In this document: positions 9,246 through 24,371 of the stretch, in pieces
Layout of the letters: each line of letters starts with the position of its first letter
Numbering within the stretch: position 1 is the stretch's first letter
DNA from: Acholeplasma sp.
GTDB taxonomy: Bacteria; Bacillota_I; Bacilli_A; Acholeplasmatales; UBA5453
DNA: 24,371 bases
Assembly: GCA_036677365.1 (NCBI GenBank)
Contig: JAVBWN010000005.1
Coordinates: 1 to 24,371, forward strand
Reading direction: 5' to 3'
Position numbers and translations under genes: made by a program
The notes under the pieces: generated by a model
The model's input: the letters and a program-made list of their open reading frames with translations, nothing else
Databases searched by the model: none
Told to the model about the DNA's origin: nothing

Positions 9246-9807
9246 AATCATCCAAGTTTTGGTTGAACACATCAAACAGGGGACGAATTTAAACGAGATA
9301 TCGTTATCTAAAGTGGCTCAAGAGGCAGAAATTGGTAAGAGTACAGTTTACGAACATTTCAAGAACAAAGAAGAAATGATATCGAGTACGTATGCATATT
9401 TACTCCATAAGTATCAACAAATCTTATTAGAACCGATTGTTATGGCATCATTTAAAGAAGCCTTCATCGCACAAATCAAGCGCATTTTATGCGTGATGAG
9501 TGATGCGAAAAGCATCATGGATGCCATCATGAACACCCAGTTGGATGGGATACCATCGCTCAGTTTAGAACATCAAAAGTTAATGGAAAACATCCAAGAA
9601 CAAATGAATCTACGATTCACAGATATCATGACTTTAGGTATTCAATCGAATGAAATCCAAGTTCAAAATATCACCCCATTTACCAAAAACATCATTCAGG
9701 CTTTAATTTCCGGACTGCTCCTACAATATGTGAAGGGTGAAATGGATTTAAATGATGATGGTATTTGTGAACTCGTATTTAACCAAGTATTAAAAGCAAT
9801 CTCATAA
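9226..9807 (+). CDS. TetR/AcrR family transcriptional regulator
   Basis: N-terminal HTH ISLSKVAQEAEIGKSTVYEHFKNKEEM. Overlaps the end of the RND gene. Confidence 0.92.
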   Translation: MSQTKDKIIQVLVEHIKQGTNLNEISLSKVAQEAEIGKSTVYEHFKNKEEMISSTYAYLLHKYQQILLEPIVMASFKEAFIAQIKRILCVMSDAKSIMDAIMNTQLDGIPSLSLEHQKLMENIQEQMNLRFTDIMTLGIQSNEIQVQNITPFTKNIIQALISGLLLQYVKGEMDLNDDGICELVFNQVLKAIS

Positions 9808-9814
9808 TGAAAAT

Positions 9815-9852
9815 AGACACCAATGATTTTTCATAAAATCTGGTGTCTTTTT
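9815..9852 (+). terminator. Intrinsic terminator after tetR
   Basis: AGACACCA-atGATTTT..AAAATC-TGGTGTCT followed by TTTT. Confidence 0.7.
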
Positions 9853-9868
9853 GCTTAAAATACATCTA

Positions 9869-9942
9869 TAAAGCGGTTATCAGTCTTTATTATTAGTGAA
9901 AGTGTTATGAAAACATTTTCAAAAATGACGAAAACGTTTTAG
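9869..9942 (+). promoter_or_regulatory. cre/LacI-like operator candidates upstream of adhE
   Basis: TAAAGCGGTTATCA (9869-9882), palindromic TGAAAACATTTTCA (9908-9921) and AAAACGTTTT (9931-9940) resemble the CcpA cre consensus TGWAANCGNTNWCA. Confidence 0.4.
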
Positions 9943-10015
9943 AGTTTAGAACGATTGCTTTCCTATATTTGATTTGAGACAATAGGGGTAAAGAACACGA
10001 AAGGAAATTGAATAT

Positions 10016-12613
10016 ATGGAATCAGACATCCAACAAACACAGTCTCATGTGGGTGGTCTTGTCCAAAACGCTCAGGCAGCTCTTGAGGCTTTTTATACCT
10101 ACACTCAAGAGCAAATTGACCACATCATTGCGAAAGTATCGGTTGCTGCATTAGAAGCACACGGTAAGCTTGCCATGATGGCGGTTCAAGAAACCAAACG
10201 CGGCGTTTTCGAAGATAAGGCTACAAAGAATTTATTTGCAGTAGAATATGTCGTCAATCACATCCGCCACTTAAAAACAGTGGGCGTGATCAGTGAGGAC
10301 GAAGTGAGTGGCATCACTCAAATCGCTGACCCTGTGGGCGTCATCTGTGGCATCATCCCAGTGACCAACCCAACCTCAACCACCATCTTCAAATGCATCA
10401 TCGCTTTAAAAACCAGAAACCCAATCATTTTTGCTTTCCACCCCAACGCACAACAATGCTCGGCTGAGGCAGCACGCATTGTCAAGCAAGCAGCGATTGC
10501 TGCCGGTGCGCCGAAGCATGCCATCCAATGGATTGAAACCCCATCGATGGAAAATACATTGGAACTCATGAAACATGAAGGCACCAACCTCATCCTCGCC
10601 ACAGGTGGTAATGCCATGGTAAAAACCGCCTATTCTTGTGGGAAACCTGCCCTTGGGGTTGGGGCTGGGAATGTGCCTGCTTATATCCATAAATCAGCCA
10701 ACATCAAACAAGCGGTGAATGACATCGTGATGTCAAAAGCATTTGATAACGGGATGGTATGTGCCTCTGAACAAGGGTGCTTCATCGATCGTGATATCTA
10801 CGAAGAAACCATCGATCGCTTCAAACAATTCGGTACTTACTTTTTATCTGAAACCGATAAATTAAAACTTATGAAACTATCTTTTGGTGTAGATGCTTAT
10901 GAAGACTATGCCAAAGCAAAACTCAATCCAAATATCGTTGGACAATCTGCTTTATGGTTGGCCAAAGAAATTGGTATTGAAGTCCCAGCGAACACGGTAA
11001 TTTTAGGCGTTCACTGTAAAGCAGTAGGGCCAGAAGAACCATTCAGCAGGGAAAAACTCTCCCCAATCCTTGCCTTCTATGAGGTGATGGATGATGCGGA
11101 AGGCATCGATTTGGCCAGAAAAATGGTTGAATTCGATGGACTCGGACACAGCGCTTGTATTCATGCCAACGATACCAGTGTGGTGAAACGATTTGGTACC
11201 GTCACCAAAGCCATCCGCATCATTCACAATTCACCTACGACATTTGGTGGTATTGGCCAAGTTTATAACCAATTCATCCCATCCCTAACGTTAGGTTGTG
11301 GATCCTATGGTAGAAACAGCGTTGGTGATAATGTCAGCGCGAATCACTTACTCAACATTAAGAAGATTGGACGTAGAAAAAATAATATGCAATGGTTTAA
11401 GATTCCATCGAAGATCTATTTTGAAAGGGACGCGATCGAGTATTTAAGACAGATGCATGATGTGTCCAAAGTATTCATCGTGACCGACCGTGTGATGGTC
11501 GATTTAGGCTATGTTCAAAAGGTCACCGACCAACTAAACCTTAGACGTAACAAAGTCCAAGTTCAATTGTTCTGTGATGTCGAACCGGACCCATCCATTG
11601 ATACCGTAAATAAAGGGTATCAAATCATGAGAAGCTTTGAACCAGACACGATTATCGCGATTGGTGGCGGTTCTCCAATGGACGCAGCTAAAGCGATGTG
11701 GTTGTTCTATGAACACCCAGAAGTGAACTTCAATGATTTGAAACAAAAATTTATGGACATTCGTAAACGTGCTTTTAGATACCCAGAATTGGGTAAAAAG
11801 AGCAGTTTGGTATGTATTCCAACCACCTCAGGTACAGGTAGTGAAGTGACACCATTCGCTGTCATCACCGACAAAAAAGACAACAAAAAATACCCATTGG
11901 CGGACTATTCCTTAACACCAACTGTGGCGATTGTCGACCCTGCTTTGGTACTGACACAACCTAAAACAGTCACTGCAGATACTGGTATGGACGTTTTGAC
12001 ACACGCGATTGAAGCCTTTGTTTCAACCCTCGCGAATGACTATACCGACGCACTTGCGCTATCAGCGATTGAAATGGTATTCAAGTATCTTAAACGTGCT
12101 TGGGACAATGGTCAAGATTTTGAAGCTAGAGAAAAAATGCACAATGCATCCACCATGGCTGGCATGGCTTTTGGTAATGCTTTCTTGGGGATATCTCACT
12201 CCATGGCTCATAAGATTGGTGGTTTATTCCATGTACCTCATGGTCGCTTAAATGCCATCTTGTTGCCAGAGGTTATCCGATACAATGGACAAAAACCATC
12301 TAAGTTATCTACTTGGCCAAAATACAACTACTATCAAGCCGATGAAAAGTACCAAAAGATTGCGAGAGTTTTAGGACTCAATGCGAATACACCCGCTGAA
12401 GGTGTGGAATCTCTCGCACAAGCTGTCTTTGATTTGGGTGAAAGTATCGGAATTCAAATGAGTTTACGTGCTCAAAAAGTCAATGAAAAAACATTTATGG
12501 CGAATGTTGAAAGCTTAGCCTATGCTGCATATGAAGACCAATGTACACCTGCCAATCCAAGACTGGCTTTGGTTGAAGATATGAAACAAATTATGATTAA
12601 GGTTTATCGATAA
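10016..12613 (+). CDS. adhE: Bifunctional acetaldehyde-CoA/alcohol dehydrogenase
   Basis: ALDH half (PVTNPTST, GVGAGN, FDNGMVCASEQ, EKLSP), linker LTLGCGSYGRNS, and Fe-ADH half (GGGSPMDAAK, PTTSGTGSEVT, HSMAHKIG, HG). Confidence 0.97.
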   Translation: MESDIQQTQSHVGGLVQNAQAALEAFYTYTQEQIDHIIAKVSVAALEAHGKLAMMAVQETKRGVFEDKATKNLFAVEYVVNHIRHLKTVGVISEDEVSGITQIADPVGVICGIIPVTNPTSTTIFKCIIALKTRNPIIFAFHPNAQQCSAEAARIVKQAAIAAGAPKHAIQWIETPSMENTLELMKHEGTNLILATGGNAMVKTAYSCGKPALGVGAGNVPAYIHKSANIKQAVNDIVMSKAFDNGMVCASEQGCFIDRDIYEETIDRFKQFGTYFLSETDKLKLMKLSFGVDAYEDYAKAKLNPNIVGQSALWLAKEIGIEVPANTVILGVHCKAVGPEEPFSREKLSPILAFYEVMDDAEGIDLARKMVEFDGLGHSACIHANDTSVVKRFGTVTKAIRIIHNSPTTFGGIGQVYNQFIPSLTLGCGSYGRNSVGDNVSANHLLNIKKIGRRKNNMQWFKIPSKIYFERDAIEYLRQMHDVSKVFIVTDRVMVDLGYVQKVTDQLNLRRNKVQVQLFCDVEPDPSIDTVNKGYQIMRSFEPDTIIAIGGGSPMDAAKAMWLFYEHPEVNFNDLKQKFMDIRKRAFRYPELGKKSSLVCIPTTSGTGSEVTPFAVITDKKDNKKYPLADYSLTPTVAIVDPALVLTQPKTVTADTGMDVLTHAIEAFVSTLANDYTDALALSAIEMVFKYLKRAWDNGQDFEAREKMHNASTMAGMAFGNAFLGISHSMAHKIGGLFHVPHGRLNAILLPEVIRYNGQKPSKLSTWPKYNYYQADEKYQKIARVLGLNANTPAEGVESLAQAVFDLGESIGIQMSLRAQKVNEKTFMANVESLAYAAYEDQCTPANPRLALVEDMKQIMIKVYR

Positions 12614-12645
12614 AAAAAGAGGACATCCATTGTGGTGTCCTTTGT
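12613..12645. terminator. Bidirectional terminator between adhE and the convergent gene
   Basis: A-run, AGGACATC-CATTGT-GGTGTCCT, then TT. Confidence 0.7.
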
Positions 12646-12647
12646 CT

Positions 12648-13763
12648 TTAGATGGCTTTTTTATAACAACGTCTTCGCTTATGATTGATGTAATCGAAAT
12701 CTTTCCATTGAGCCTGTATTGCGAGGTTATTTTCAAGTTCTGGTCCGGTTTCAGCGAATTGGATATTTCGTTTCATGGCTTTTTGAATACCATCATTCAA
12801 CATAAGCGCTGGTAAGCCTTTACCATGGTGTTTAGGGTCTACAGCGATGAAGTATAAATCGACCACATCGTGCTTCTTTAAGGCTCTTAGAATTCTAAAT
12901 AGACCAAATGGGAATAAGTGGCCATTGCTTTTTTTATTCGCCATCGCTAGTGAAGGCATCATCAATCCAAATCCAGCTACCTGATCTTCATTATCTAATA
13001 CAAACCACAAGTAATCGAGTTTAACGATGGTGATCATTTGCTTGATGTAATAATCCATGACTTTGTCACTAATCGGATGAAAACCATAGAGTTCATTGAA
13101 AGCCACGTTATACATTTTGAATGCAGGGTAGATATATTTAAAGACATCTTTCTTTTTCTTACAAACAACTAACTTAAACCCATAACGACGTTGGGTGATG
13201 TCGGCTACTTTACTGATTTTTTCTGGGATAGAGGTCATCATGATACGTTTTTCAATCCAGTCAGCATCTTTGATAAATCCCAGTTGTTCTAAGTGTTCAC
13301 TGTAGTATTTAGGGTTCCAAATCGTGATGAACATGTTTAAATATTCAAACCCATCGACCAACATACCCATACGATCCAAATCCGTAAATCCGATCGGTCC
13401 AATCAAAGTATCCATCCCTTTGGATTTATTCCATTCAGTGACCGCAGCCATCAGTGCTTTCGTAACTTCAATGTCATCAATCATATCGATTCGTGAAAAT
13501 CGACCAATCTTGGTTTGTTTGGCTTCATTCCATTGGTGGTTGATGATCCCAGCGACACGACCAACTATTTTGTTATCTTTATAGGCTAAAAAGCATTGTG
13601 AATCACAGTATTCATGGGCAGGGTTTTTCTTTTTATCGAAGACATGCATCTCATCTATCGATAATGCTGGCACGAAACTAGGTTCTTTTTTAAAGAGTTT
13701 GTTTGGAAATTCAGTGAAGCGTCTTAAGTCTCTTTTATTCTGTACTGGCTTAATCGTAATCAT
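12648..13763 (-). CDS. GNAT-like (YghO-type) N-acetyltransferase-fold protein
   Basis: FLAYKDNKIVGRVAGIIN, LIGPIGFTDLD..GMLVDGF, WNP.YY, YFIAVDPKHHGKG and ETGPELENN motifs. ATG 13763 follows a GAGGT RBS. Confidence 0.75.
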   Translation of the reverse strand: MITIKPVQNKRDLRRFTEFPNKLFKKEPSFVPALSIDEMHVFDKKKNPAHEYCDSQCFLAYKDNKIVGRVAGIINHQWNEAKQTKIGRFSRIDMIDDIEVTKALMAAVTEWNKSKGMDTLIGPIGFTDLDRMGMLVDGFEYLNMFITIWNPKYYSEHLEQLGFIKDADWIEKRIMMTSIPEKISKVADITQRRYGFKLVVCKKKKDVFKYIYPAFKMYNVAFNELYGFHPISDKVMDYYIKQMITIVKLDYLWFVLDNEDQVAGFGLMMPSLAMANKKSNGHLFPFGLFRILRALKKHDVVDLYFIAVDPKHHGKGLPALMLNDGIQKAMKRNIQFAETGPELENNLAIQAQWKDFDYINHKRRRCYKKAI

Positions 13764-13808
13764 AGGGTTACCTCGCACTCAATTACCCTTATTTTAGCAC
13801 AAATCAAA

Positions 13809-13837
13809 TTGCGAGAATCATTTTTTTGTGCTATGAT
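13809..13837 (+). promoter_or_regulatory. Promoter of the tRNA-Thr gene
   Basis: TTGCGA (13809-13814), 17-nt spacer, TG-extended TATGAT (13832-13837), about 10 nt before the tRNA. Confidence 0.65.
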
Positions 13838-13847
13838 AATGTCGCGT

Positions 13848-13923
13848 GCCGAAATAGCTCAGTCGGTAGAGCAGCTGTCTCGTAATCAGCAGGTCGTAGG
13901 TTCGATTCCTATTTTCGGCACCA
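13848..13923 (+). tRNA. tRNA-Thr (anticodon CGT), CCA encoded
   Basis: 76-nt cloverleaf: acceptor GCCGAAA/TTTCGGC-A-CCA, D arm GCTC..GAGC, anticodon CGT at 13881-13883, T arm GTAGG-TTCGATT-CCTAT. Confidence 0.97.
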
Positions 13924-14105
13924 TTTTTTGAATAATTCGTTTTTAGAGAAGGATCATTGAAGTTCAAAGGTCTTTTTTTTATGCAGTTATGTAAAATGGT
14001 TACTTTTGGAATAGATAACAAGAAATATCAAACATGAATTTCTAGGGTCAAATGGAGTGATTTGAATTTGATTTCACATTTAAACTTCTAAGGTTTTCAT
14101 TTAAA
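13901..14105 (+). repeat. att-like repeat copy 1: tRNA 3' core (23 nt) plus terminator hairpin and ~190-nt arm
   Basis: TTCGATTCCTATTTTCGGCACCA-TTTTTTGAATAAT...GATCATTGAAGTTCAAAGGTCTTTT...GGTTACTTTT...GAATTTCTAG..GTC...AACTTCTAAG, aligning by eye with 21370-21577. Confidence 0.9.
13949..13980 (+). terminator. tRNA terminator hairpin, also present in repeat copies 2 and 3
   Basis: AAGGATCATTGA-AGT-TCAAAGGTCTT followed by a T-run. Confidence 0.75.
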
Positions 14106-14119
14106 AAAACCACTAAAAA

Positions 14120-14935
14120 ATGCAGAAGATGAAATAAAAACATCGATGATGTACAAAAGAACTGTAGTTACTATTTTAAGAACACAAATTTGTTGCTTCA
14201 AGCTTTCACTAGAAAGTCTTATCAGCTGAATTTGGTGGAGAAAACAATGAGGTTTTAGAGTTCTTAGGCGATTGAGTATTGGATTTTTATGTGACCAAAG
14301 TCATCGCTGAAAGATATGGATTTTTCAAATCTCAAACGGATACATATGATGAGCAAGAAGATAACGATGAATATTGCATTAAGGCTCATCGAAACGAACA
14401 AGACTTTACTGAGCTGAAAAAGGAAATCGTAAGCAATGCGAATCTTGCTAGAAGAATTGAAGAACTAGGTTTCAAGACGATGATGTACTTGGGACAAAGC
14501 GATATTGATAATCAAGTATGGAATCAAGAAAAGGTTAAAGCTGACCTATTCGAAGCCATTCTAGGTGCCATTGCAATCGACAGTGATTGGGATCCAGATG
14601 GGCTCCAAAACTCTGTGGAATTCATGCTTCAAATTGAAGATCAACTACAAGATGTTGAAGATGGAATGGATGAGTTAAAAGAAAATCTAACACAAGAAAA
14701 TGCAGTCAGCACACTTAAAGAATTAGCTGAAAGTGGTAGATGTTCCATTCCACAATACGATATTCCAGATGAGCAAGTCTATGACGAAGGTGAGTATTGG
14801 TGGTCATGTACTTGTTATGTTAGAAGTTGGTCCATTCAAAAAACAGCACTTTCTAAGTCAAAAAAGGGTGCCAAAAGGTATGCTGCTTATCTCGTTTTGT
14901 GTGACTTCTTTGGTATTGAACCTGAAGAAAAATAA
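14120..14935 (+). pseudogene. RNase III family protein with C-terminal dsRBD, disrupted at the 5' end
   Basis: Upstream of ORF 14279 the sequence reads YYFKNTNLLLQAFTRKSY, then a frameshift at ~14222, then AEFGGENNEVLEFLGD*VLDFYV with an in-frame TGA at 14273-14275. Downstream are KVKADLFEAILGAIAIDS and a dsRBD-like NAVSTLKE...SKSKKGAKRYAAY. Confidence 0.85.
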
Positions 14936-14943
14936 TTAACGAT

Positions 14944-15042
14944 AAATGCCCAAAAGGTACTTGAATTACCATGATATAGAAATGTTTCCCAGATAACACT
15001 AAATTATGGTAATATTCCGCATACAAGTACCATTTGGCATTT
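14944..15042. repeat. Long imperfect nested inverted repeat (~100-nt stem-loop)
   Basis: Outer arms AAATGCCCAAAAGGTACTTG (14944-14963) and CAAGTACCATTTGGCATTT (15024-15042). Inner arms ATTACCATGAT (14965-14975) and ATTATGGTAAT (15003-15013). Confidence 0.8.
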
Positions 15043-15258
15043 TTATTTAGTTAAAATAGGTCACTGATATGGGGCAGTAATCTACACTCCAAAAACGAAA
15101 ACTAAATATTTTTTACACTGAAATTAAGTAAGGTTGGATAATTGTTGCCAGGTTATGCTAAACTATTATATAAGATGACATTACTTTTTAAGTATTTATT
15201 TCGCATATAATTGTGTTGCAATCTTGGCACTTTTTATTTAGTAAGGTTTGGTGATAAT

Positions 15259-15819
15259 GTGGGGGCAGGAATTATTGAATTTATATCTAACATTGTAAAT
15301 ATAACTGGTAATCCACTTCTTGACACTATCATTTTTGGTATTATTGGGGTTATCAGTTTTTCCATTGCTTTTGATTTGGTTGGATTTATATTTGCTTCTA
15401 TTGGAAAGTATGACTCTAAATCAATGAGTGAGTTGCATTGGGGTATAAGAGTATTCATATTTGCTTTTCTCACTTTTGTCTTAGTGAAGATTGCTCAGTT
15501 TTTTAAATGGATATTTACTCCTCCACAAGTGTATTTTCTATTAGGAATTGTAATATTCGTTATTTTAATGGTTGTTTTACTTTTAATTTATAAAAACAAG
15601 AAGAAGATCAATGAAGTTGAGAAACCTATGGAAGTAATGGTTACACCTCCACTTGAAAACGATGTTAAAAATGCAATAAAAGTAGACAACCAAAATAGCA
15701 ATATCGAGGATAGTTGTCCATATTGTTGTGGGAAGTTAGTTCAAAGAAAAGGTCCATACGGATACTTTCTTGGATGCTCTAATTATCCAGAATGTAAATA
15801 TACAAGAAACAAAGAATGA
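15259..15819 (+). CDS. Membrane protein with C-terminal topoisomerase-type C4 zinc ribbon
   Basis: Three hydrophobic segments, then CPYCCGKLVQRKGPYGYFLGCSNYPECKYTR. Start uncertain (GTG 15259 follows GGTGA). Confidence 0.8.
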   Translation: MGAGIIEFISNIVNITGNPLLDTIIFGIIGVISFSIAFDLVGFIFASIGKYDSKSMSELHWGIRVFIFAFLTFVLVKIAQFFKWIFTPPQVYFLLGIVIFVILMVVLLLIYKNKKKINEVEKPMEVMVTPPLENDVKNAIKVDNQNSNIEDSCPYCCGKLVQRKGPYGYFLGCSNYPECKYTRNKE

Positions 15820-15835
15820 AAGTAGGTATACCAAT

Positions 15836-16573
15836 ATGATTTGGATTGATAAAAAAGCATTCGAAGACACATACGCGATATTAAAGAAAGAAAAAACTCT
15901 TGAACCTGTCTATACCGATCTAAAACAGTTTATTGAGGATACATTTGGTATTACTGTGTTTAATATTATTTTACAACCTATAAAAACGGGTCTCTTTGAT
16001 AGAATAGTAAAAAATTCATATTTAAACGGTCACAAGTATAAATTAATTTGTTATGTCGGTTCGTATGCTGAAAGAGAGCAGATGCAAAATAGGATAGATG
16101 TTCAGTTACCAAACTTTCCTAATGCACACAAAATGGTAAATGATGAAAATAAACAACAGTTAATTTTGGATAAATTGTTTGAACTAAGTGTAAAGTACAA
16201 TTACACGATTAAGGCTAAAAAAGACCTGATTTGGGTTGATTATTTTTACTGGTTTCCGACTGACTATATGGGTTTTATTGTAAGTAAAGTACAAAAGCAA
16301 ATCATTAGAAGTGTTTTGACTAAATATAAACAAGAAGGTAATATTTGGGAAATTCATACCAGTGGAATTGGTATCTATATATTTTATGACACTGAAAATA
16401 ACAATTTGCTAAATCAACAAAATGGCATAACTGAGGATATTCATAGAATAATTTATACTTCTATCAAAGAGTTGGATGAATTTGATTTTTATAAAGTGGA
16501 ATATATAGCATTTGATACAAAGGAAAATCTAGACAAAAATTATCAAGGAAATCTTTATTACTATTTTAAGTAG
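15836..16573 (+). CDS. Hypothetical protein
   Basis: Long ORF in AT-rich DNA. ATG 15836 follows AGTAGGT. No motif recognised. Confidence 0.7.
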   Translation: MIWIDKKAFEDTYAILKKEKTLEPVYTDLKQFIEDTFGITVFNIILQPIKTGLFDRIVKNSYLNGHKYKLICYVGSYAEREQMQNRIDVQLPNFPNAHKMVNDENKQQLILDKLFELSVKYNYTIKAKKDLIWVDYFYWFPTDYMGFIVSKVQKQIIRSVLTKYKQEGNIWEIHTSGIGIYIFYDTENNNLLNQQNGITEDIHRIIYTSIKELDEFDFYKVEYIAFDTKENLDKNYQGNLYYYFK

Positions 16574-16629
16574 CAGAATCTAAATAAGCTAAGGCTTCAA
16601 AATAACTTTAATGTGAAGGAATAAACAAA

Positions 16630-17277
16630 ATGAGAAAAATCAAAGAAATTGTCAAGTTTGAAAAAGAAAACATGCCAGATTATCAGTACAAATTCAACTA
16701 TTATTTTTTGTTCCCATTTATTCTTGTATTTTTAGGAGGTCCAATTATTGCATTATCGATTTCAATTCCATTGGGAATAGCCAATTCGGAATATCACTTA
16801 TTACCTATTATCATATGGGCTATTATATTATTTACGATGTTGTTGATATTAATCCCATACGGAAGATCAATACAAAAAAGAGTGGTTGAAGATCAAGTAG
16901 AAAAAATAAACAAAATACTAACTACTGTAGACTATGACCTCGCCTTAAAAACACTGAATGATAGGGGTGTTTGCAATCAAGAAGGTTTTTTCACAGTGGA
17001 AAAAGATGTGATTCCATTTGAACAATTGAATTATATGTTTGTCGCTCAATATTGGGGTGGAAAAACATTTTTGTCGTTAGTAATTCATTCTGATAGGTAC
17101 CCAAACGATACTTTTTTGGAAATTGATAATAATGTATTCACCTTAATAAAATCAAAAAAACTAAAAGTTGAAAACCAAGAAATGATTAGGTTCATGGAAA
17201 CTAGTACTAAAGCTTTTACAAACAAGTTGGTCAAGAGAAGTAGTACAATGCGATTCACGAAGAATGATCTAATATAA
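16630..17277 (+). CDS. Hypothetical membrane protein (2 TM plus soluble C-terminal domain)
   Basis: 215-aa ORF with GAAGGA RBS and two hydrophobic segments. Confidence 0.75.
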   Translation: MRKIKEIVKFEKENMPDYQYKFNYYFLFPFILVFLGGPIIALSISIPLGIANSEYHLLPIIIWAIILFTMLLILIPYGRSIQKRVVEDQVEKINKILTTVDYDLALKTLNDRGVCNQEGFFTVEKDVIPFEQLNYMFVAQYWGGKTFLSLVIHSDRYPNDTFLEIDNNVFTLIKSKKLKVENQEMIRFMETSTKAFTNKLVKRSSTMRFTKNDLI

Positions 17278-17423
17278 TCATTGAATCATATTTGATTAGT
17301 ATGGTTTTTTACTTGGAATGAGATACCAAATTATTGAAATGTAAGAGTGTCACCTTTTGGGTGAAGGTGCTAAAAATTGTACTACGACTGTTTATCTAAA
17401 AATTCAAATAAGAGGTTAAACTT

Positions 17424-18152
17424 ATGAAAATTAAATTTAGTGTAACTGATAATAATAAAAACAATAATACATATTTGTCAGATGTTTTTGCTATAGCTGA
17501 ACTGCCTACACAAATTAAAACATCGAAATTTTTAGGTTGGACCTTAATAAAAGTGAGAAATAGACTTAATTACTTAGTTCTCATACCAGATGGTGATTTA
17601 TTTGTCTTATCATGGATTGATGAAAGCAAAATTGTCAAAGTAGAAGAAGGTTCAGAACCGACTGATTGGTTATTCATTAATAAGTATATTGATCAAATTC
17701 CGTATTATTCTAAAATCAAATTAAGAAATCTAAAGTGTTATGAATGGATGATAAAGAATCAAGGATTTTTTATTAATATATATGACAATAACGATTCTTC
17801 AAGAAACTTGTTATATCAAAATTTACCTGGTATATTGTCCAAAAAGCATTATAGTAAACAACAATTTTATGACAACATTCATTACTTAGTTAGATATGGT
17901 GATGAACCAGAGATCGATTTATATACCCAAAATGGCAAAAAATACTTCGTTATTGCATACAAAGATTTTTGTGATTTCTATGACGAAGATAATAATTACT
18001 TTAAGCTTAATAAGATTGAAGAAATTGAAAAGTTTATTTCTTTTGGTGATATAGTAGATATTCAAGGAGATTTTGTAGATTTTGATAGAGATATTAGAGA
18101 ACAATCAACTATAATTGACGGCAAATTGTGGATCAATACACAATCTAAGTAA
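17424..18152 (+). CDS. Hypothetical protein (acidic, aromatic-rich C-terminal half)
   Basis: 242-aa ORF with AGAGGT RBS. Confidence 0.75.
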   Translation: MKIKFSVTDNNKNNNTYLSDVFAIAELPTQIKTSKFLGWTLIKVRNRLNYLVLIPDGDLFVLSWIDESKIVKVEEGSEPTDWLFINKYIDQIPYYSKIKLRNLKCYEWMIKNQGFFINIYDNNDSSRNLLYQNLPGILSKKHYSKQQFYDNIHYLVRYGDEPEIDLYTQNGKKYFVIAYKDFCDFYDEDNNYFKLNKIEEIEKFISFGDIVDIQGDFVDFDRDIREQSTIIDGKLWINTQSK

Positions 18153-18235
18153 TGAATGATTTGTTGCTACTATTTTTTAAATTATAATTATAGATGTAGA
18201 AAATGAATAAGGTAAAATATTAAGGGGGATCAGTA

Positions 18236-18553
18236 ATGAAGAAAGATTGGCACCGAAAAGGCATAACTATAGATGAAAAACTGGCCGATTGTTACTTTCA
18301 ATGTATTTATTATCTATCTATATACAAGGGAATATCTAATGATAAAATTAAACATTTCAAAATAGATACTGCAAACAGATTCCATATTAATATAGACATA
18401 GACGAATTTGATTTACTAAGCGATATTCCATCAGACGATAGTTTTTTAATATCTATGGTTGAAGAAATAAAAACTATAATCAATGGAACAGAACTCTTAG
18501 ATTTTAGTAAAGTGGAAGAATTAACACTTCATTTAATTAAAGAAAATTGGTAA
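18236..18553 (+). CDS. Hypothetical protein
   Basis: 105-aa ORF with AAGGGGGA RBS. Confidence 0.7.
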   Translation: MKKDWHRKGITIDEKLADCYFQCIYYLSIYKGISNDKIKHFKIDTANRFHINIDIDEFDLLSDIPSDDSFLISMVEEIKTIINGTELLDFSKVEELTLHLIKENW

Positions 18554-18581
18554 GTATTTGATTTGATACAGGAGAAAGACT

Positions 18582-18890
18582 ATGAATAAGAAGCAAACTA
18601 GTTTATCGTTTTTACCAATCATTGGAATAATGGTTTATTTAATCCCAATCTTTTTCCAATCCGTTTTATCTAAAAATAACAGTAAAGGGCTAAGAGCGGG
18701 GTGGAGCTTTTTCCTTGGAATGATAAGTTTTATAGTTCTTTATGGGGGATTCGCTCTAATTAATAATCTTTTTAAACTTAACCTAGAAAACACTCTGTGG
18801 TTATTATACACAATGCTATATTTATCGTTCGTGATTTGGAATGTCGTGTTTTTCTTATCATATAATCGATTAACCAAAAACTTAGAGTAA
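18582..18890 (+). CDS. Hypothetical 3-TM membrane protein
   Basis: 102-aa hydrophobic ORF with AGGAGA RBS. Confidence 0.7.
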   Translation: MNKKQTSLSFLPIIGIMVYLIPIFFQSVLSKNNSKGLRAGWSFFLGMISFIVLYGGFALINNLFKLNLENTLWLLYTMLYLSFVIWNVVFFLSYNRLTKNLE

Positions 18891-18923
18891 TCACCTAATA
18901 TCACCCATAAGGGGGAATAACCA

Positions 18924-19418
18924 TTGAAAAATACAAATCAATTAGATATCAAAATTCTATGCACAAAAGAAGAATTATTGGAACATATTCGGGTATATCG
19001 TCATAAGGACGAATATATTAGAGTAGGAAGACATGATGATTATGATGTTTGCTTAGAATTGACTTGGCAACAGCACAGTAAACCATTTGTTGAATATTTA
19101 TATTTAGCTAATGTCATAGATAACCAGCTAATAGGTAAAATAGAAAAACCACAGAAAAAAATGATCGAGAAAGGCAAAGACAAGTTACCGTTTTTAGTCA
19201 AATTGCAGATTGTTGGAATGCTCCTTCTTGGGTTATTAATTCTCTATGGATTACCTTTTCTTATCATTTATAGTTTGAGTGATAGACTATTCCTATCATT
19301 GGGTTTAGGAGTAATACCCTTGATTGGGTTCATTATTTTTATAGTTGTTTCTGACGAAGATCATATTTCAGTACATAAAAGAAATATTATTCAAGTTATA
19401 ACAGAATTAGGAAATTAA
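18924..19418 (+). CDS. Hypothetical membrane protein (C-terminal 2 TM)
   Basis: 164-aa ORF with TTG start after AAGGGGGA. Confidence 0.7.
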   Translation: MKNTNQLDIKILCTKEELLEHIRVYRHKDEYIRVGRHDDYDVCLELTWQQHSKPFVEYLYLANVIDNQLIGKIEKPQKKMIEKGKDKLPFLVKLQIVGMLLLGLLILYGLPFLIIYSLSDRLFLSLGLGVIPLIGFIIFIVVSDEDHISVHKRNIIQVITELGN

Positions 19419-19462
19419 TAAATGAATGTTTACTTTGGTAGTATCCTATAAGGTAGGTATAA

Positions 19463-19942
19463 ATGAAAAAGATCAATTGTTATTCCAAATATACATACAA
19501 TGTTTATTTAGCAATTAGTTTGATGCTATCGATACTAGCTGCACTACCTGTAATTTTGTTCAAAGAGGATTCACAATCGATAAAATTAGTATGGTCAAGC
19601 AGTATGTTGTTATTTTCTTTTGTAATGATTTATGCATACTTTTATCATAAACAAATACTCATATACACAAACAACAAGTTAGTCTTAAGAAATCCTTTTG
19701 GTGTTATGCAAACCTTAGATTCAAAGAACTGTATTGTTGAAATTATGTCATTACCAACAGAATTTAGCTGGGTAGGAGTATCAAATAAAAAGTGGATTTG
19801 TATTTATGATAGTACTAGCCATATTGAAAAATTTAAAACTGGTGTTTCAAACAGTAAAAAGCATTCCAGAATACAGGTCATCTACAATGAAGTGAATGAA
19901 AGTATTATCAAGAAACTTTTGGATAGAGTTAATTGTAACTAG
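19463..19942 (+). CDS. Hypothetical membrane protein (2 TM plus small beta-rich domain)
   Basis: 159-aa ORF with AAGGTAGGT RBS. Confidence 0.7.
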   Translation: MKKINCYSKYTYNVYLAISLMLSILAALPVILFKEDSQSIKLVWSSSMLLFSFVMIYAYFYHKQILIYTNNKLVLRNPFGVMQTLDSKNCIVEIMSLPTEFSWVGVSNKKWICIYDSTSHIEKFKTGVSNSKKHSRIQVIYNEVNESIIKKLLDRVNCN

Positions 19943-19946
19943 TATA

Positions 19947-20020
19947 TAAAAACCACATTATTAAGCCATTTTTATAGGGGTGCTAAAAATCTACACGATT
20001 TGGGCTTAGGGTGCTAAAAT
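19947..20020 (+). repeat. ~75-nt intergenic repeat, copy A, with two GGGTGCTAAAA boxes
   Basis: TAAAAACCACATTATTAAGCCATTTTTATAGGGGTGCTAAAAATCTACACGATTTGGGCTTAGGGTGCTAAAAT, which aligns with 21177-21252. Confidence 0.9.
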
Positions 20021-20039
20021 CAACTTTTGAGGTGATTAA

Positions 20040-20462
20040 ATGAACATAATTAATAATGATAATCAAGAATTCGAAGCGTTATATAATTTCATATTATCTT
20101 GTGGATTTAGAAAAGAGAATATAACTATTTCAGAAAATTCAGAATCATTCAGAAGTTTGATAATGGATTGTCATAGTCAGTTAACGCTTATCATGTATTA
20201 TGATAGAGAGTGGACGATAGATTATTATTCAGGTAAGTTTACAACCCATAATCATGTTTTTAGTTGGAGTGATGATTTTATCCAGAATCTGTTTAACGGT
20301 GACATTTATTTATTAGTTAATAGCAGGTTCTTACATCGCGTTTCTGCATTCTCAGATATCGAATATATTCATAAATCAATACTAAGTAAAGTATTAAACA
20401 AGTATAAGAATAAGAAGAAGTATAAACTTTTTTCAACCAAAGAGATTCTAATTAATAACTGA
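20040..20462 (+). CDS. Hypothetical protein
   Basis: 140-aa ORF with GAGGTGA RBS. Confidence 0.7.
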   Translation: MNIINNDNQEFEALYNFILSCGFRKENITISENSESFRSLIMDCHSQLTLIMYYDREWTIDYYSGKFTTHNHVFSWSDDFIQNLFNGDIYLLVNSRFLHRVSAFSDIEYIHKSILSKVLNKYKNKKKYKLFSTKEILINN

Positions 20463-20556
20463 GATGAACTGTATTGGCAAATATTAACATTCAATTTGGA
20501 CTGATCCCGTTGTTAAGCCGTTTATATATTGCCGAGAAAAAATAGAGGAGGATTTT

Positions 20557-21141
20557 ATGGAATTTACGAATCAGATTGATAAACAAAAAGCCTTAATAAT
20601 TGCGAGAGAAAGTATTGTTTATGGTTATGGTTTTAGAAAAAAACAAGCTAAGAAAGCATTTGGAATAATGTTCTTAATAGGAACATTTGGTCTGGCTTGG
20701 GTGTTAGCATTTAAAGATTTATTCAATCAATTTTCAAACCCACTACTTTTTTTGTTTATATTTGGAATACTATTATCTGGCTTGTTATTTTTTAAAGCTG
20801 AACAATTACAAATTTACGCATTGCAAGAACAAACGAAAAGACTTTATAAAGAAAAATCTGTAATAAAATATGGCGTAATTATTGATAGCGAGCAATTAGC
20901 ATTTATGAAAAAAGATGGTACACAGAAGTCATACAAACTAGAATCTATAAAACACTTGATTTATAGATCAGATTTAGAAGGATTGTTTTTCTCGGAGAGC
21001 AAATTAGCTAGATTTGTATTTTTCGTAGATTTGTCAATTTTAGATGAATCATTACGACTAGAATTCTTTAATATTCTTTTGAAAAATCTGCAAGATGTTG
21101 ATGCCAAAAAAGAACTAAGAGAATCAATTTCTAAAGAATAA
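20557..21141 (+). CDS. Hypothetical membrane protein (2 TM plus soluble domain, YcxB-like architecture)
   Basis: 194-aa ORF with GAGGAGG RBS. The family assignment rests on architecture only. Confidence 0.7.
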   Translation: MEFTNQIDKQKALIIARESIVYGYGFRKKQAKKAFGIMFLIGTFGLAWVLAFKDLFNQFSNPLLFLFIFGILLSGLLFFKAEQLQIYALQEQTKRLYKEKSVIKYGVIIDSEQLAFMKKDGTQKSYKLESIKHLIYRSDLEGLFFSESKLARFVFFVDLSILDESLRLEFFNILLKNLQDVDAKKELRESISKE

Positions 21142-21176
21142 CTATGGAATGTACAGGGAAAACCAAAAATTATAAT

Positions 21177-21252
21177 TAAAAAACCACTTTGTTAAGCCAT
21201 CATTTAGGGGTGCTAAAAATATTACACGATTTGAAGGTAGGGGTGCTAAAAT
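21177..21252 (+). repeat. ~75-nt intergenic repeat, copy B, with two GGGTGCTAAAA boxes
   Basis: TAAAAAACCACTTTGTTAAGCCATCATTTAGGGGTGCTAAAAATATTACACGATTTGAAGGTAGGGGTGCTAAAAT. A single-box partial copy lies at 17365-17389. Confidence 0.9.
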
Positions 21253-21279
21253 TGTATTAAACCCCGATACCTTAGACAG

Positions 21280-21303
21280 TGGAGAAATGAGGATTTGAAC
21301 CCT
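21280..21303 (-). other. tRNA/tmRNA-like 3'-end fragment (att-core-like), different from tRNA-Thr
   Basis: The reverse complement reads AGGG-TTCAAAT-CCTCA-TTTCTCC-A: T-loop, 3' T-stem strand, 7-nt acceptor strand and discriminator in correct register. No 5' half is present. Confidence 0.6.
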
Positions 21304-21339
21304 GAATTATTTACTAATTGAAATTATCGCTTTGTAATG

Positions 21340-21577
21340 CGATAAATATATGAAAGTATATGTATAAACTTCGAGTCCTATTTTCGGCACCACTTTTTGA
21401 ATAATTAGTTTTTAGAGAAAGATCATTGAAGTTCAACGGTCTTTTTTTTTATGGTGAAGAAGAAGGGTTACTTTTTGATGCGATAATAAGATATGTAAAC
21501 ATTGAATTTCTAGAGTCGAATGAGGAGATTTGAGTTGTGATGCCACCCATGAACTTCTAAGAGTTGTATCTATAAAA
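21340..21577 (+). repeat. att-like repeat copy 2 (30-nt upstream arm, tRNA-Thr 3' core at 21370-21392, terminator, downstream arm)
   Basis: Core TTCGAGTCCTATTTTCGGCACCA is 22/23 identical to the tRNA. The downstream ~190 nt is similar to 13924-14105, and the upstream 30 nt is 24/30 identical to 23101-23130. Confidence 0.9.
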
Positions 21578-21715
21578 ATATAGTAACTATTATATTGATG
21601 AAAGCGACAAGAGAAAAATATAGAAACTAAAAGGATCTCAATTTTCCTAGACTCTTTAATGGCTTATATAGCCATGGAACCATATATTTTGAAACAAAAC
21701 AAAAAACAAACGATT

Positions 21716-21772
21716 CAAAATGAAACGATAATATAATGTATTGTTGCAAAATGAAACGTAAAGTGCTATGAT
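21716..21772 (+). promoter_or_regulatory. Promoter with overlapping 12-bp direct repeats
   Basis: TTGCAA (21744-21749), 17-nt spacer, TG-extended TATGAT (21767-21772). CAAAATGAAACG occurs at 21716-21727 and 21747-21758. Confidence 0.7.
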
Positions 21773-21792
21773 AGTATCAGAGGTGAACAAGC

Positions 21793-23064
21793 ATGAAATT
21801 TAGTGAATCGAAAACAGTCGAAATAAAAGAGAAGTATACAAAATCAGTACTAAAGACAGTTTCAGCATTTAGCAATTATCATGATGGTACGATTTATATC
21901 GGGATTAATGATCAAGGTGATATTGTTGGATTTTCTAGGGTAGATGAAGAGAAAATTTCAATTGAGAATTCAATTAATACGACAATTACACCAAAACCTT
22001 TCTTTGATATGAATATTTTAGAAATTGATAACAAGAAGATATTAGAAATTGTTGTTTCTAAAGGGGACAATGGGCCTTATTATTATCAAAACACAGCTTA
22101 TATGAGAAATGATACCTCAACCATACCTGTTGACGGTACTAATTTAACTAGACTCATTTTAAACAGTAAAAATCTAACATACGATCAGTTGAACGCTAGT
22201 CAAACAGAATTGAGTTTTAACTATTTAAAAGAAAAACTAAGCTTAGTTCTTAATATTAAAGATACCAATAAAGCTGTTCTAACGACACTTGGTTTATATA
22301 GTGGTAAAAATTACAATAATGGAGCGCTACTACTTTCTGATGATGGAAACCTGAGTCAATCATTTGTTGACATTGCAAGATTCAAATTGGACATTCATCA
22401 TTTTATGGATAGAAAACGATTTGAGCATCAATCATTATTACATTATTTTGATCAAACAATGGATTATTTTCAGGCACATTATCCACCATACCAAGCGATT
22501 GAAGGCATCCAAAGAACAACAAAGGAACAGGTTCCTCTTATTGCATTTCGAGAAGCTTTATCAAACGCTATCATTCATAGAGACTATTTGTTGAGTTCAG
22601 GTGTCCAAATATCTATGTTTGAAAATCGAATTGAGATTGTTTCACCTGGTGGTCTTCCTGAGGGCATGGATGAAGATCAATATTATAGAGGATTAACTTC
22701 GTTATCTAGAAATCCAATCATTGCTAATGTATTCTTTAGACTTAATTTAATTGAGCAATTTGGTACAGGTATTAAAAGAATTATCGATAGTTACAAACAC
22801 TATAAGATAAAACCATCTTTTGATATTCAAAAATCTCTGATCAGAATAATTTTACCAGTATCAAATTTTGATTATTCTAAACTAGAGAAAAAAGAAGCTA
22901 TTGTTTCATATCTACACGCTTATCCAAAATCATCAAGAAAAAGTATTGAAGATGCAATTTCTATTGAAAAAAGTACACTAATAAGAAGATTGAATGAACT
23001 TGATGAGCTTGGAATTATCTCAAAGATTGGAAATGGTCCAAGTACTATATATTTTTGTAGATGA
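21793..23064 (+). CDS. Schlafen/AlbA_2-domain protein with HATPase_c_4 (RecG-C-like) domain and C-terminal HTH
   Basis: ESKTVEIKE...KTVSAFSNYHDGTIYIGIND, REALSNAIIHRDY, RIEIVSPGGLP, RNPIIANVF..LNLIEQFGTGI and a terminal wHTH (STLIRRLNELDELGII..IGNG). Confidence 0.9.
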   Translation: MKFSESKTVEIKEKYTKSVLKTVSAFSNYHDGTIYIGINDQGDIVGFSRVDEEKISIENSINTTITPKPFFDMNILEIDNKKILEIVVSKGDNGPYYYQNTAYMRNDTSTIPVDGTNLTRLILNSKNLTYDQLNASQTELSFNYLKEKLSLVLNIKDTNKAVLTTLGLYSGKNYNNGALLLSDDGNLSQSFVDIARFKLDIHHFMDRKRFEHQSLLHYFDQTMDYFQAHYPPYQAIEGIQRTTKEQVPLIAFREALSNAIIHRDYLLSSGVQISMFENRIEIVSPGGLPEGMDEDQYYRGLTSLSRNPIIANVFFRLNLIEQFGTGIKRIIDSYKHYKIKPSFDIQKSLIRIILPVSNFDYSKLEKKEAIVSYLHAYPKSSRKSIEDAISIEKSTLIRRLNELDELGIISKIGNGPSTIYFCR

Positions 23065-23100
23065 TGCATTTATTTGTGTGAAAAATATAACACTATAAAA

Positions 23101-23210
23101 CGATAAATTGTTAAAAATATATGTATAAAATTCGGATCATCTTTTCGGCACCACTTTTTGAATAATGAGTAATTAGTGAAAGATCATTGAAGTTCAATGG
23201 TCTTTTGTTT
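23101..23210 (+). repeat. att-like repeat copy 3 (upstream arm, degenerate tRNA core at 23131-23153, terminator)
   Basis: TTCGGATCATCTTTTCGGCACCA (19/23 to the tRNA), then CTTTTTGAATAAT...AAAGATCATTGAAGTTCAATGGTCTTTT. Confidence 0.88.
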
Positions 23211-23432
23211 CGATTTATTTAGAAGAATAAAATACAAACCGATAAGGTGAACGAATCATTTAATTTCACTGATGTTGCTTTATCAGAATTAGATAGGCAT
23301 GGCGTAAAAACATCAGTTCATAATAACGGAAGTATAGAAAACCCAAAGTCCTAGTATAAAAATTATTGACAAAATATAGTGTTTCGGCTGAAATGGAGTT
23401 GTAATCCAATAAATACGAAGGAGTGTGATTTT

Positions 23433-24106
23433 ATGTATTATATTAGACATATCGAAAAGAAAATCCTCGAAGCCAAAGAAATGTTTAAGGTATTGTTAAT
23501 TACTGGACCACGACAAGTTGGAAAAACGACAACACTCAAACACCTATTTAAAGAAACATATCGTTATGTGACCTTAGATGATATTACAGAACTTGCCATT
23601 GCCAAAGAAGACCCCAAATTGTTTTTTATGAACCATCCACTACCTTTAGTCATTGATGAAGTACAGTTAGCGCCAAACCTCTTTACTGAAATTAAAAGAA
23701 TAGTCGACAATTCTGGTACTTATGGACAAATTATCTTGATAGGATCACAAACATTTCACTTGATGGAACATGTTACAGAAACCTTAACTGGTAGAATTGG
23801 AATACTTGAATTTCAGGGACTATCAACAAGAGAAATCAACAAAGATCTCTTTGATTTACCGTTTATTCCGACCAAGCATTTTTTAGATACTGTTCGTCAT
23901 TCAAGTTCGGATGATTTGTGGGCAGTTATCCATAAAGGTAGTATGCCGGAATTATATAATAAACCAGAAATTGATTGGCAGTTGTATTATGCCTCTTATG
24001 TAAGAACGTATATTGAACGGGATGTCAGAAGTTTGGTTAATGTCAAAATTCTGGATATATTTGCTAAATTCATCACAAGTATTGCTGCGAGGACAGGTAG
24101 TTTAAC
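23433..24106 (+). pseudogene. AAA+ ATPase (AAA_14/DUF4143-type), interrupted by IS insertion
   Basis: Walker A ITGPRQVGKTT, Walker B VIDEVQ, IGSQ, ETLTGR, KGSMPE and YVRTYIERDV. Homology stops at AARTGSL, after which the frame runs into the IS left end and stops at 24149. ATG 23433 follows AAGGAG. Confidence 0.88.
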
Positions 24107-24371
24107 AACACAATCAAGAAGTCCCCTTCCTCTTCAGGTAGCGGGATGAATTGATTCGTAAAATTCTTTCACATTTATTTCACAAAACCCATAAATAATG
24201 TTATAATATAGTTGAATAATCTCTATACATAAACACTATGAAAGGGTGAACCGGATGACCAAAGCTTTTAAGTTTCGAATCTATCCAAATGAATCTCAAA
24301 AGACTTTGATTCATATGACTCTAGGCCATAATCGCTTTCTCTGGAATAAGATGTTAGAAGATAAACAGAAA
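24107..24371 (+). mobile_element. IS200/IS605-family (IS1341-type, tnpB-only) element, left part
   Basis: After TTTAAC comes AACACAATCAAGAAGTCCCCTTCCTCTTCAGGTAGCGGGATGAATTGATT, a left-end hairpin similar to the right-end hairpin at 427-457. Promoter TTCACA-17-TATAAT at 24179-24207, then tnpB with no room for tnpA. The junction is uncertain by a few nt. Confidence 0.85.
24255..24371 (+). CDS. tnpB: TnpB N-terminus (HTH_OrfB_IS605 region), 3'-truncated by window edge; absent from the ORF track
   Basis: MTKAFKFRIYPNESQKTLIHMTLGHNRFLWNKMLEDKQK matches the KA(Y/F)KFRIYP...G..RF.WN pattern. AAGGGTGA RBS. Confidence 0.92.
   Translation, partial: MTKAFKFRIYPNESQKTLIHMTLGHNRFLWNKMLEDKQK

Follow-up and report, generated by a model that had tools for sequence, protein, structure and literature searches.

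Integrons carry polarised rows of mostly co-oriented cassettes of one to a few genes, variable in order and rich in toxin–antitoxin and defence functions. Tandem islands of another kind are known from staphylococcal cassette chromosomes (SCC), for which composites with pseudo-SCC units have been described (PMC10581047, PMC13739063, PMC10061031), and from enterococcal cassette chromosomes with multiple attR sites (PMC6222049); these papers, like the others cited below, are drawn on here in excerpt. In Dehalococcoides, 16 islands with an integration module stand beside 15 without one, and dsiB overlaps attL (PMC3146451). Here we analyse a window of 24,371 bp, the whole stretch from position 1 to 24,371 of contig JAVBWN010000005.1 in the Acholeplasma sp. 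assembly GCA_036677365.1, in which recombinase-less cassettes stand in tandem behind a tRNA-Thr(CGT) gene. The array works like a pseudo-SCC stack and not like an integron, a logic already described in the literature on SCC, on the Dehalococcoides islands and on cis-mobilizable elements (CIMEs). On balance we favour the view that it is a composite island built by an SCC-like element family that integrates at the tRNA-Thr 3' end, the units of the window being pseudo-SCC-like passengers; we class it in this way because the candidate enzyme is a pair of large serine recombinases (LSRs) carried by an SCC-like element with the same ends.

The likeness to SCC and SCC-like islands (PMC10581047, PMC13739063, PMC10061031, PMC6222049) lies in one or two LSRs placed after a helicase operon (Cch/DUF927), in the presence of DUF960 and in dyad-symmetric att sites of about 50–70 bp with a central dinucleotide. 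With SCC composites the array shares tandem accretion (the oldest unit being assumed to lie outermost), recombinase-less pseudo-SCC units and restriction-type cargo. In contrast to SCC as presented in these excerpts, the target here is a tRNA 3' end and not rlmH, rimL or ssrA; wall-less Acholeplasmatales serve as hosts, LSR scores stay well short of the Ccr cut-offs, and recombinase-less units dominate (72/73), are small (median 2.5 kb) and each bring a terminator-like hairpin for the tRNA. The window units are without ccr and are anchored at tRNA-Thr(CGT) rather than rlmH, and they are thus not SCC proper. Under a broader definition, a helicase (Cch/DUF927) before the LSR operon is found in an element on contig C17 of genome G283 and not in the window's genome (G, C and L numbers are our handles for genomes, contigs and loci, the window being all of contig C5 of genome G000), and dyad-symmetric att repeats with a central dinucleotide are seen at the ends of L106 and of the G283 element and are weak in window-type junctions. 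Modules 1 and 2 of the window are bounded by att sites and contain neither recombinase nor transfer genes, as is characteristic of pseudo-SCC units and CIMEs.

Like the Dehalococcoides ssrA islands with DsiB (PMC3146451), the array stands in tandem at the 3' end of a stable RNA gene and is tentatively linked to a CcrB-like serine integrase. It differs from them, as excerpted, in its single autonomous element against about 70 passengers, in LSRs that lie 5.6 kb inside, in its tRNA-Thr target and in the large share of defence or toxin–antitoxin cargo; neither an ssrA target nor a six-gene dsiB module overlapping attL is present here. Streptococcal CIMEs (PMC5704250) likewise keep attL and attR without integration genes and accumulate in tandem at a gene 3' end. 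They are regarded there as derived by decay from integrative and conjugative elements (ICEs) or integrative and mobilizable elements, whereas here the same minimal modules occur intact across host families. With integrons the array shares small, mostly co-oriented cassettes (172/199 open reading frames, ORFs) in variable order; unlike integrons, it has a tRNA target and no resident IntI, the likely enzyme being a serine recombinase on a visiting element. No tyrosine recombinase that could be an IntI beside attI is encoded on this contig, and the junctions are based on the tRNA end, with no attC-type site seen (no attC model was run).

The array consists of the following parts, site positions being numbered from the inferred crossover, T|T at 13912|13913.

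13848..13923, plus strand: tRNA-Thr(CGT), the integration target and the sole gene called by ARAGORN; its 3' end comprises the B half-site and the core.
13913..21381, plus strand: module 1, 7,469 bp, with 11 co-oriented ORFs and no recombinase; exactly missing at the core in a conspecific lineage.
13924..14109, plus strand: left end of module 1, with a T-rich arm, a terminator-like hairpin at about 13945-13980 and a distal direct-repeat motif at about 14033-14109.
21327..21381, plus strand: right end of module 1 (P arm), with an outer palindrome, a conserved motif at -30 to -13 and an unusually tRNA-like stretch at -8 to -2.
21382..23142, plus strand: module 2, 1,761 bp, a single gene; it adjoins the tRNA directly in other hosts.
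21382..21579, plus strand: core of junction 2, TTTCGGCACCA, and left end of module 2 (hairpin and distal motif).
23091..23142, plus strand: right end of module 2 (P arm of the family consensus type).
23143..23210, plus strand: core and hairpin of junction 3, without distal motif.

The original prediction, made from the letters of the window, had the 23-nt 3' end of the tRNA recurring at 21370 (22/23) and 23131 (19/23), and both counts were reproduced, as was the match between the 30-nt upstream arms of copies 2 and 3 (24/30). The hairpin that it placed behind each copy is indeed common to copies 1, 2 and 3; its folding is only moderate (z -1.8, -1.2 and -2.4) and that of copy 1 was missed by a strict terminator scan. 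Copies 1 and 2, said to be alignable for about 190 nt, align over 212 nt at 80.7% identity (E 1e-46), and the repeat family extends over 129 nt (71% and 81% identity) at spacings of 7469 and 1761. Two of the three proposed units stand as bounded units of 7,469 and 1,761 bp; the third has neither a distal left-end motif nor a right end, is interrupted at about 24101 by an IS605/TnpB insertion sequence (IS) and is not shown to be a cassette, junction 3 being either a terminal junction or part of an older unit. The proposed decay of core identity with distance from the tRNA was not borne out: copy 3 differs from the tRNA just as the family consensus does, the atypical copy being copy 2 with its likeness to the tRNA, and the gradient is therefore no evidence of age. 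An age gradient across arrays was also abandoned, as it was weak and confounded by terminal junctions (distal motif by rank 20/27, 17/27, 2/10 and 2/3). Strong matches to a hidden Markov model (HMM) of the upstream arm occur in the 1.97-Mb genome only at 21327 and 23091, and the GC content falls from about 36–45% upstream to 27–35% within the array.

The sites of large serine recombinases contain a 2-bp crossover within a dyad of 50–60 bp. Excerpts of PMC6222049 and PMC10581047 agree with this anatomy. In the family analysed here, positions -1 to +11 are common to tRNAs and junctions, and position -2 is C in 82 of the 93 arm-type junctions and A in 40 of the 41 tRNA-type sites (copy 2 is one of six exceptions with A at this position); positions -8 and -4 differ too. 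Some left ends repeat the right arm in inverted form, and dyad symmetry reaches its maximum at -1/+1, with 15/22 in L106 (next best 11) and 14/22 at the ends of the G283 element (next best 9). In three junctions the arm is kept through +1 and what follows resembles the 3' end of tRNA-Leu(CAG) as seen in G216 and L105, which is suggestive only as evidence for the crossover. The anatomy of these sites points to a serine recombinase that would cut at the dinucleotide TT, 11 nt short of the CCA terminus.

The distal direct-repeat motif is present in 61 of 71 window-type left ends against 110 of 2000 random windows, in 12/20 and 6/17 inverted-arm left ends, and in the left end of the G283 element. 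From their sequences, window-type left ends are read as a putative diverged element end equipped with a terminator-like hairpin for the tRNA. The idea that the right half of the window-type site is native host DNA, with circles carrying an attR-like site, was dropped because the distal motif is shared by the left ends of elements. A comparable inverted motif lies about 14 bp from the centre in those LSR-pair elements of this bacterial order that occupy tRNA-Ser. A long type of left end (L043, L106, L144, L149) has an inverted pair of distal motifs around a second, degenerate GGCACCA, about 250–300 nt from the core.

Comparison of the locus across strains revealed modules gained, lost and reordered with breakpoints in the core, in line with what the original prediction had expected. 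Locus L124, which matches the window at 98% identity over 8,464 nt, lacks module 1 and carries module 2 immediately after the tRNA. A contig from sequencing run X10 joins 13906 to 21376, skipping 7,469 nt, and the 17 ambiguous letters at the joint are the core; L124 and X10 may represent one lineage. Module 2 shares 96% identity over 1,722 nt with the first-rank module of L047, in a genome of another family (G258), 88.5% with that of L052 and 98.9% with that of L124. This Schlafen module thus holds rank 2 in the window and rank 1 in L047, L052, L124 and L137, and in L108 it comes after a RelB-Fic module. The latter has rank 1 in three loci and rank 5 in one five-module array, and follows five other upstream neighbours. 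The closed genome G008 has one module only, with an IS3 behind it and no recombinase in the vicinity: about 175 kb separate the array from the closest tyrosine recombinase, and more than 0.7 Mb separate it from the LSRs.

The exact junction pattern was used to search collections of species genomes, metagenomes and viral contigs. It returned 20 entries among species genomes (Acholeplasmataceae, Mariniplasma, Izemoplasmatales, unplaced Bacillota and one Cloacimonadota), 41 among metagenomes and none among viral contigs; BLAST against plasmids and phages gave no match. A profile of 55 arms matched 39 of 80 chosen Acholeplasmatales genomes, three of them at the tRNA core only; one genome had eight sites. 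A census of 48 loci, from which overlapping copies were removed by hand and in which some same-species duplicates were left, yielded 73 modules bounded on both sides, belonging to 51 DNA types of 714–15,725 bp (median 2,536); most of the recombinase-less units measure 1–8 kb. Searched with HMMs built from the recombinases of the window's own genome, one of the 73 bounded modules contained a recombinase, and this was an unrelated tyrosine-integrase element in G255; the view of a single element family with unrelated cargo and no recombinase of its own is upheld. The ORFs of bounded modules face away from the tRNA in the proportion given above. Neither a leftover fragment of a recombinase or helicase in the modules scanned nor a conjugation module in the ORFs scanned was seen. 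Pfam searches of 139, 132 and 53 chosen ORFs and a PADLOC search of 35 identified AbiE, RelB-Fic, Phd-ParE, SoFic-like, Schlafen, Shedu, CBASS, GmrSD, AbiL and PDC-S01-like cargo, together with transporters, sugar enzymes and many ORFs without annotation. The Fic ORF of the RelB-Fic module (L037 15981-16670 and homologues) terminates inside the right arm of the cassette, in place of the outer palindrome.

Neither a tyrosine nor a serine recombinase was found among the 24 ORFs of the window, and the six tyrosine recombinases and five LSRs of the genome all lie on other contigs. The genome's own LSRs are less likely candidates: they belong to other clades and are located at tRNA-Cys or on a prophage; no DUF927 match and no LSR helper were found in this genome. 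A resident integrase upstream of the tRNA was likewise rejected: the recurrent 300-aa ORF there is mostly a YegS-type kinase, and the upstream genes are GNAT, YegS-type or other host genes. The tyrosine integrase that the original prediction proposed to look for beyond the terminal IS was not found on the contigs that may come next. Synteny points to C12 (from G004 and G009) or to C8 (from L124), and in neither was there a tyrosine or LSR match. Several ORFs that recur without annotation (991, 895/522 and 194 aa), considered as hidden recombinases, have no match to Pfam or to our own HMMs. The tyrosine element of G255 duplicates the tRNA from the anticodon arm on and is missing the shared arm, and for the prophage upstream of the L125 junction no arm was found in 22 viral loci of its family. 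The viral collection contained no relative of the G283 LSRs, and 80 LSR loci from it were without the arm.

The best candidate enzyme is an LSR pair on a 24.4-kb SCC-like element whose ends appear to be of the same kind as those in the window. This element occupies the minus strand of contig C17 of G283 between a left site at 25030 and a right P arm at 633; the sites at 28324 and 25030 each join a left half of tRNA-like sequence to the Thr core and to the arm in inverted form. It encodes a type ISP restriction enzyme, AbiH, DUF3846, DUF960, an RNase H-HEPN gene and a DUF927+HTH_56 helicase, the last followed by a 106-aa ORF and by LSRs of 512 and 548 aa, which lie 5.6 kb from the nearer element end; cargo is present at both ends of the element. 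In locus L403 the LSR pair occupies 6215-7858 and 7966-9501. The helicase matches the SCC Cch1 model far below its cut-off. For the LSRs the best NCBIfam match is CcrB, with 152.6 and 122.1 bits where the cut-off is 900; they are related LSRs and not Ccr. Proteins P0002 and P0003 share 59% and 54% identity with the G283 LSR. SAUGI and DUF1643 gave no match in the element at E 1e-4. In a FastTree tree of 88 LSRs the G283 entries, themselves on long branches, group as sisters with the pairs carried by SCC-like elements at tRNA-Glu.

Those SCC-like elements at tRNA-Glu(TTC)-type sites (L392/L393 in G070, L396/L397 in G208, L408/L413 in G295 and L211/L415 in G259) carry a DUF927 helicase, an LSR pair, restriction cargo and repeated Glu-type junctions, with DUF960 and RadC in G070. 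Other LSR-pair elements lie at the CCA ends of tRNA-Gly, -Cys, -Ser and -Leu (L196, L304, L308, L312, L314, L317, L212 and L372-L374). Within this family one left end occurs at both tRNA-Cys and tRNA-Gly, and G242 has repeated recombinase-less junctions. The LSR gene at L188 2723-4321 lies on the strand opposite to tRNA-Ser(GGA) and overlaps with its 3' end, an arrangement like that described for dsiB.

For the array of the window we propose that the LSR pair would cut at this TT dinucleotide, and that an incoming circle would restore the tRNA 3' end, supply its own terminator and shift older units outward; an internal joint would therefore consist of the right arm of one unit and the left end of the next. 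Insertion would take place at the tRNA-proximal site, the newest unit coming first, and the excision or insertion of single units would depend on the presence in the cell of a rare helper that carries LSRs. The cassettes were probably inserted by a rare relative of SCC, the methicillin-resistance element of staphylococci. As this genome yielded no LSR helper, its array is probably static. The earlier idea of an integron-like array served by an integrase acting in trans is retained in so far as the enzyme must come from elsewhere, and revised in that the best candidate is an LSR pair and not an integron-type tyrosine integrase.

Several observations speak against this proposal. The link to a helper consists of one element on one contig of a metagenome-assembled genome, and no intact tRNA is seen there; the element has a degenerate right core and a variant type of arm, which shares 28/41 and 25/41 nt with the window junctions. 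No close homologue of the G283 LSRs was found in the other 306 genomes of the order (next best 34–43%), and four Izemoplasmatales LSR homologues had neither a tRNA nor the arm within 1.5 kb. The SCC-like elements of G070 and G208 are bounded by tRNA-Glu-type sites and have P arms within about 150 nt of these sites, which shows that such an arm can stand next to an LSR pair as a nested passenger. Symmetry is weak in window-type junctions, with a mean of 9.6/22 at the centre against 9.2 on either side. The tRNA-Leu(CAG) end that three junctions resemble was not found in the assemblies of G052 or G108, a TACCTGCACCA match in G108 being a chance one within coding sequence. L124 and X10 both end near 23551-23563, and no circle joint was seen in the contigs, the only material searched. 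Finally, the L124 arm has the appearance of a mosaic between copies 2 and 3, and the window's copy 2 is tRNA-like at -8 to -2, which suggests that exchanges also occurred outside the dinucleotide.

The units could instead be decayed remnants (CIMEs) of autonomous SCC-like islands, shrunk by internal deletion and now either mobile in cis with an intact neighbour or immobile. This is a published route to tandem islands (excerpts of PMC5704250 and PMC3146451), some junctions are degenerate, and the cargo at both ends of the G283 element means that loss of its centre would leave a cassette-like unit. The same modules of 1–3 kb nevertheless recur with intact ends at various ranks in two host families, with up to 96% identity, and the modules scanned hold no recombinase or helicase fragments; we therefore regard an origin by decay as rather unlikely. 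Simple tandem duplication of the tRNA-terminator region would account for the hairpin being repeated in three copies. It is scarcely credible and already refuted by the comparative data: the tRNA has no such upstream arm, the units carry unrelated cargo, and modules turn up again in other families.

Two further explanations concern the enzyme. RecA-type recombination between the similar left ends of about 200 nt might do most of the deletion and shuffling after a site-specific origin, a view to which the similarity of copies 1 and 2, the mosaic-like L124 arm and the tRNA-like bases of copy 2 lend some weight. We consider it improbable, since the X10 breakpoint lies inside the 17-nt core and not elsewhere in the 212 nt, and homology leaves unexplained both the conserved right arm, which has no tRNA counterpart, and the sharp boundary at -2. 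A tyrosine recombinase, either host XerC/D or a visiting integrase, might act on the tRNA 3' end: window-type junctions show TTCR..YGAA around an 8-bp stretch, a tyrosine-integrase element does occupy tRNA-Thr in G255, enzymes of XerC/D size were present in all five array genomes tested, and an LSR match was absent in 11 of 40 relatives, several of them with arrays. It seems very improbable that such an enzyme is responsible, given that the G255 duplication starts at the anticodon arm and comes without the shared arm, that the symmetry centre and the boundaries at -2 and +2 fit a 2-bp overlap, and that the only autonomous element found with the same ends encodes LSRs.

Beyond the composite island integrating at tRNA-Thr that we favour, a wider scenario may be put forward tentatively, with more doubt than confidence. 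The small units might be a dedicated non-autonomous family and not remnants, excised by rare SCC-like helpers, perhaps replicated via the distal motif, and passed between families of Acholeplasmatales and to and from Izemoplasmatales. Parallel families at tRNA-Thr, -Glu, -Ser, -Gly, -Cys and -Val might nest in one another's ends, and together they might form a serine-recombinase counterpart of integrons and a main route of defence-gene exchange among free-living Mollicutes. Searches of the open-access literature turned up no publication dealing with this site or with Acholeplasmatales SCC-like elements, and the word 'serine' does not occur in the main text, as available to us, of a survey of Mollicutes ICEs (PMC12205969). 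The proposed reading would extend SCC-like elements to wall-less bacteria and to a tRNA target, and it offers, for direct testing, a pair of recombinases as candidate enzymes and a crossover of two bases. The roughly 50 natural cassette types, many of them with defence or toxin–antitoxin genes or unannotated, constitute a pool for the discovery of anti-phage systems. The array is also relevant to a point left open for SCC composites in the excerpted part of PMC13739063, namely recombinases acting on att sites of other elements in a stack.

The cargo and the remaining features of the window are as follows.

14279..14935, plus strand: ORF with an RNase III domain (PF00636), first cargo gene of module 1.
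15211..21141, plus strand: ten low-GC ORFs, mostly without a family, one with Zn_ribbon_Top1.
21208..21302, plus strand: end of a second element family, with GGTGCTAAAA repeats followed by an inverted tRNA-Ser-like half-site.
21793..23064, plus strand: 423-aa protein with Schlafen/AlbA_2, HATPase_c_4 and helix-turn-helix domains (Pfam), the gene of module 2.
23379..24149, plus strand: AAA_14 ATPase, PDC-S01-like, shortened by the IS.
24101..24371, plus strand: where the contig ends, the 5' end of an IS605-type (TnpB) element present in many copies, outside the cassette system.

Pfam searches of the 24 window ORFs recognized the RNase III, Zn_ribbon_Top1, Schlafen/AlbA_2+HATPase_c_4 and AAA_14 proteins and the start of TnpB, and PADLOC gave no match for the 11 ORFs of module 1. 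The front of this module also occurs in L046, L058, L060 and L122 (DNA matches of 86–93%), and relatives part from the window sequence near 15030-15047; the region 15211..21141 is probably a second island nested inside module 1. The RNase III-like cargo gene (14137-14929) has an 85.5% copy at 58437-59230 of C31 in G000, directly behind a prophage LSR pair. The composite end formed by GGTGCTAAAA and the half-site lies nested within the right end of module 1; it is found again in L070 and L071 and, more diverged, in L112, and extra copies of the repeat lie at 17366 and 19978-20020 of the window. Together with TACACGA, at a period of about 31–33 nt, GGTGCTAAAA marks the ends of elements at tRNA-Ser(CGA) and tRNA-Val(GAC); this family occurs in the window, in C17 and C31 of G000 and in L070, L071, L112 and L122. 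Short-sided joints between GGTGCTAAAA repeats (20–51 letters) were not used as evidence.

No separate piece of the assembly was found to hold the remainder of the cut AAA_14 gene. Positions 1-465 and 24101-24371 of the window are pieces of the multicopy IS605-type TnpB element, which ends many contigs of this assembly; in L124 an IS605-type element is inserted in this AAA gene at position 23551 rather than 24100. In the Izemoplasmatales locus L362 (G348, 9433-15221) the same arms are found at tRNA-Thr(TGT). In L394 (about 12327), L404 (about 714) and L407 (about 6843), tRNA-like half-sites bear the Thr core in the absence of a tRNA gene, with cassette ends still following, and that of L394 stands at the usual YegS locus. 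To judge by such remnants, the landing site may outlive the tRNA gene.

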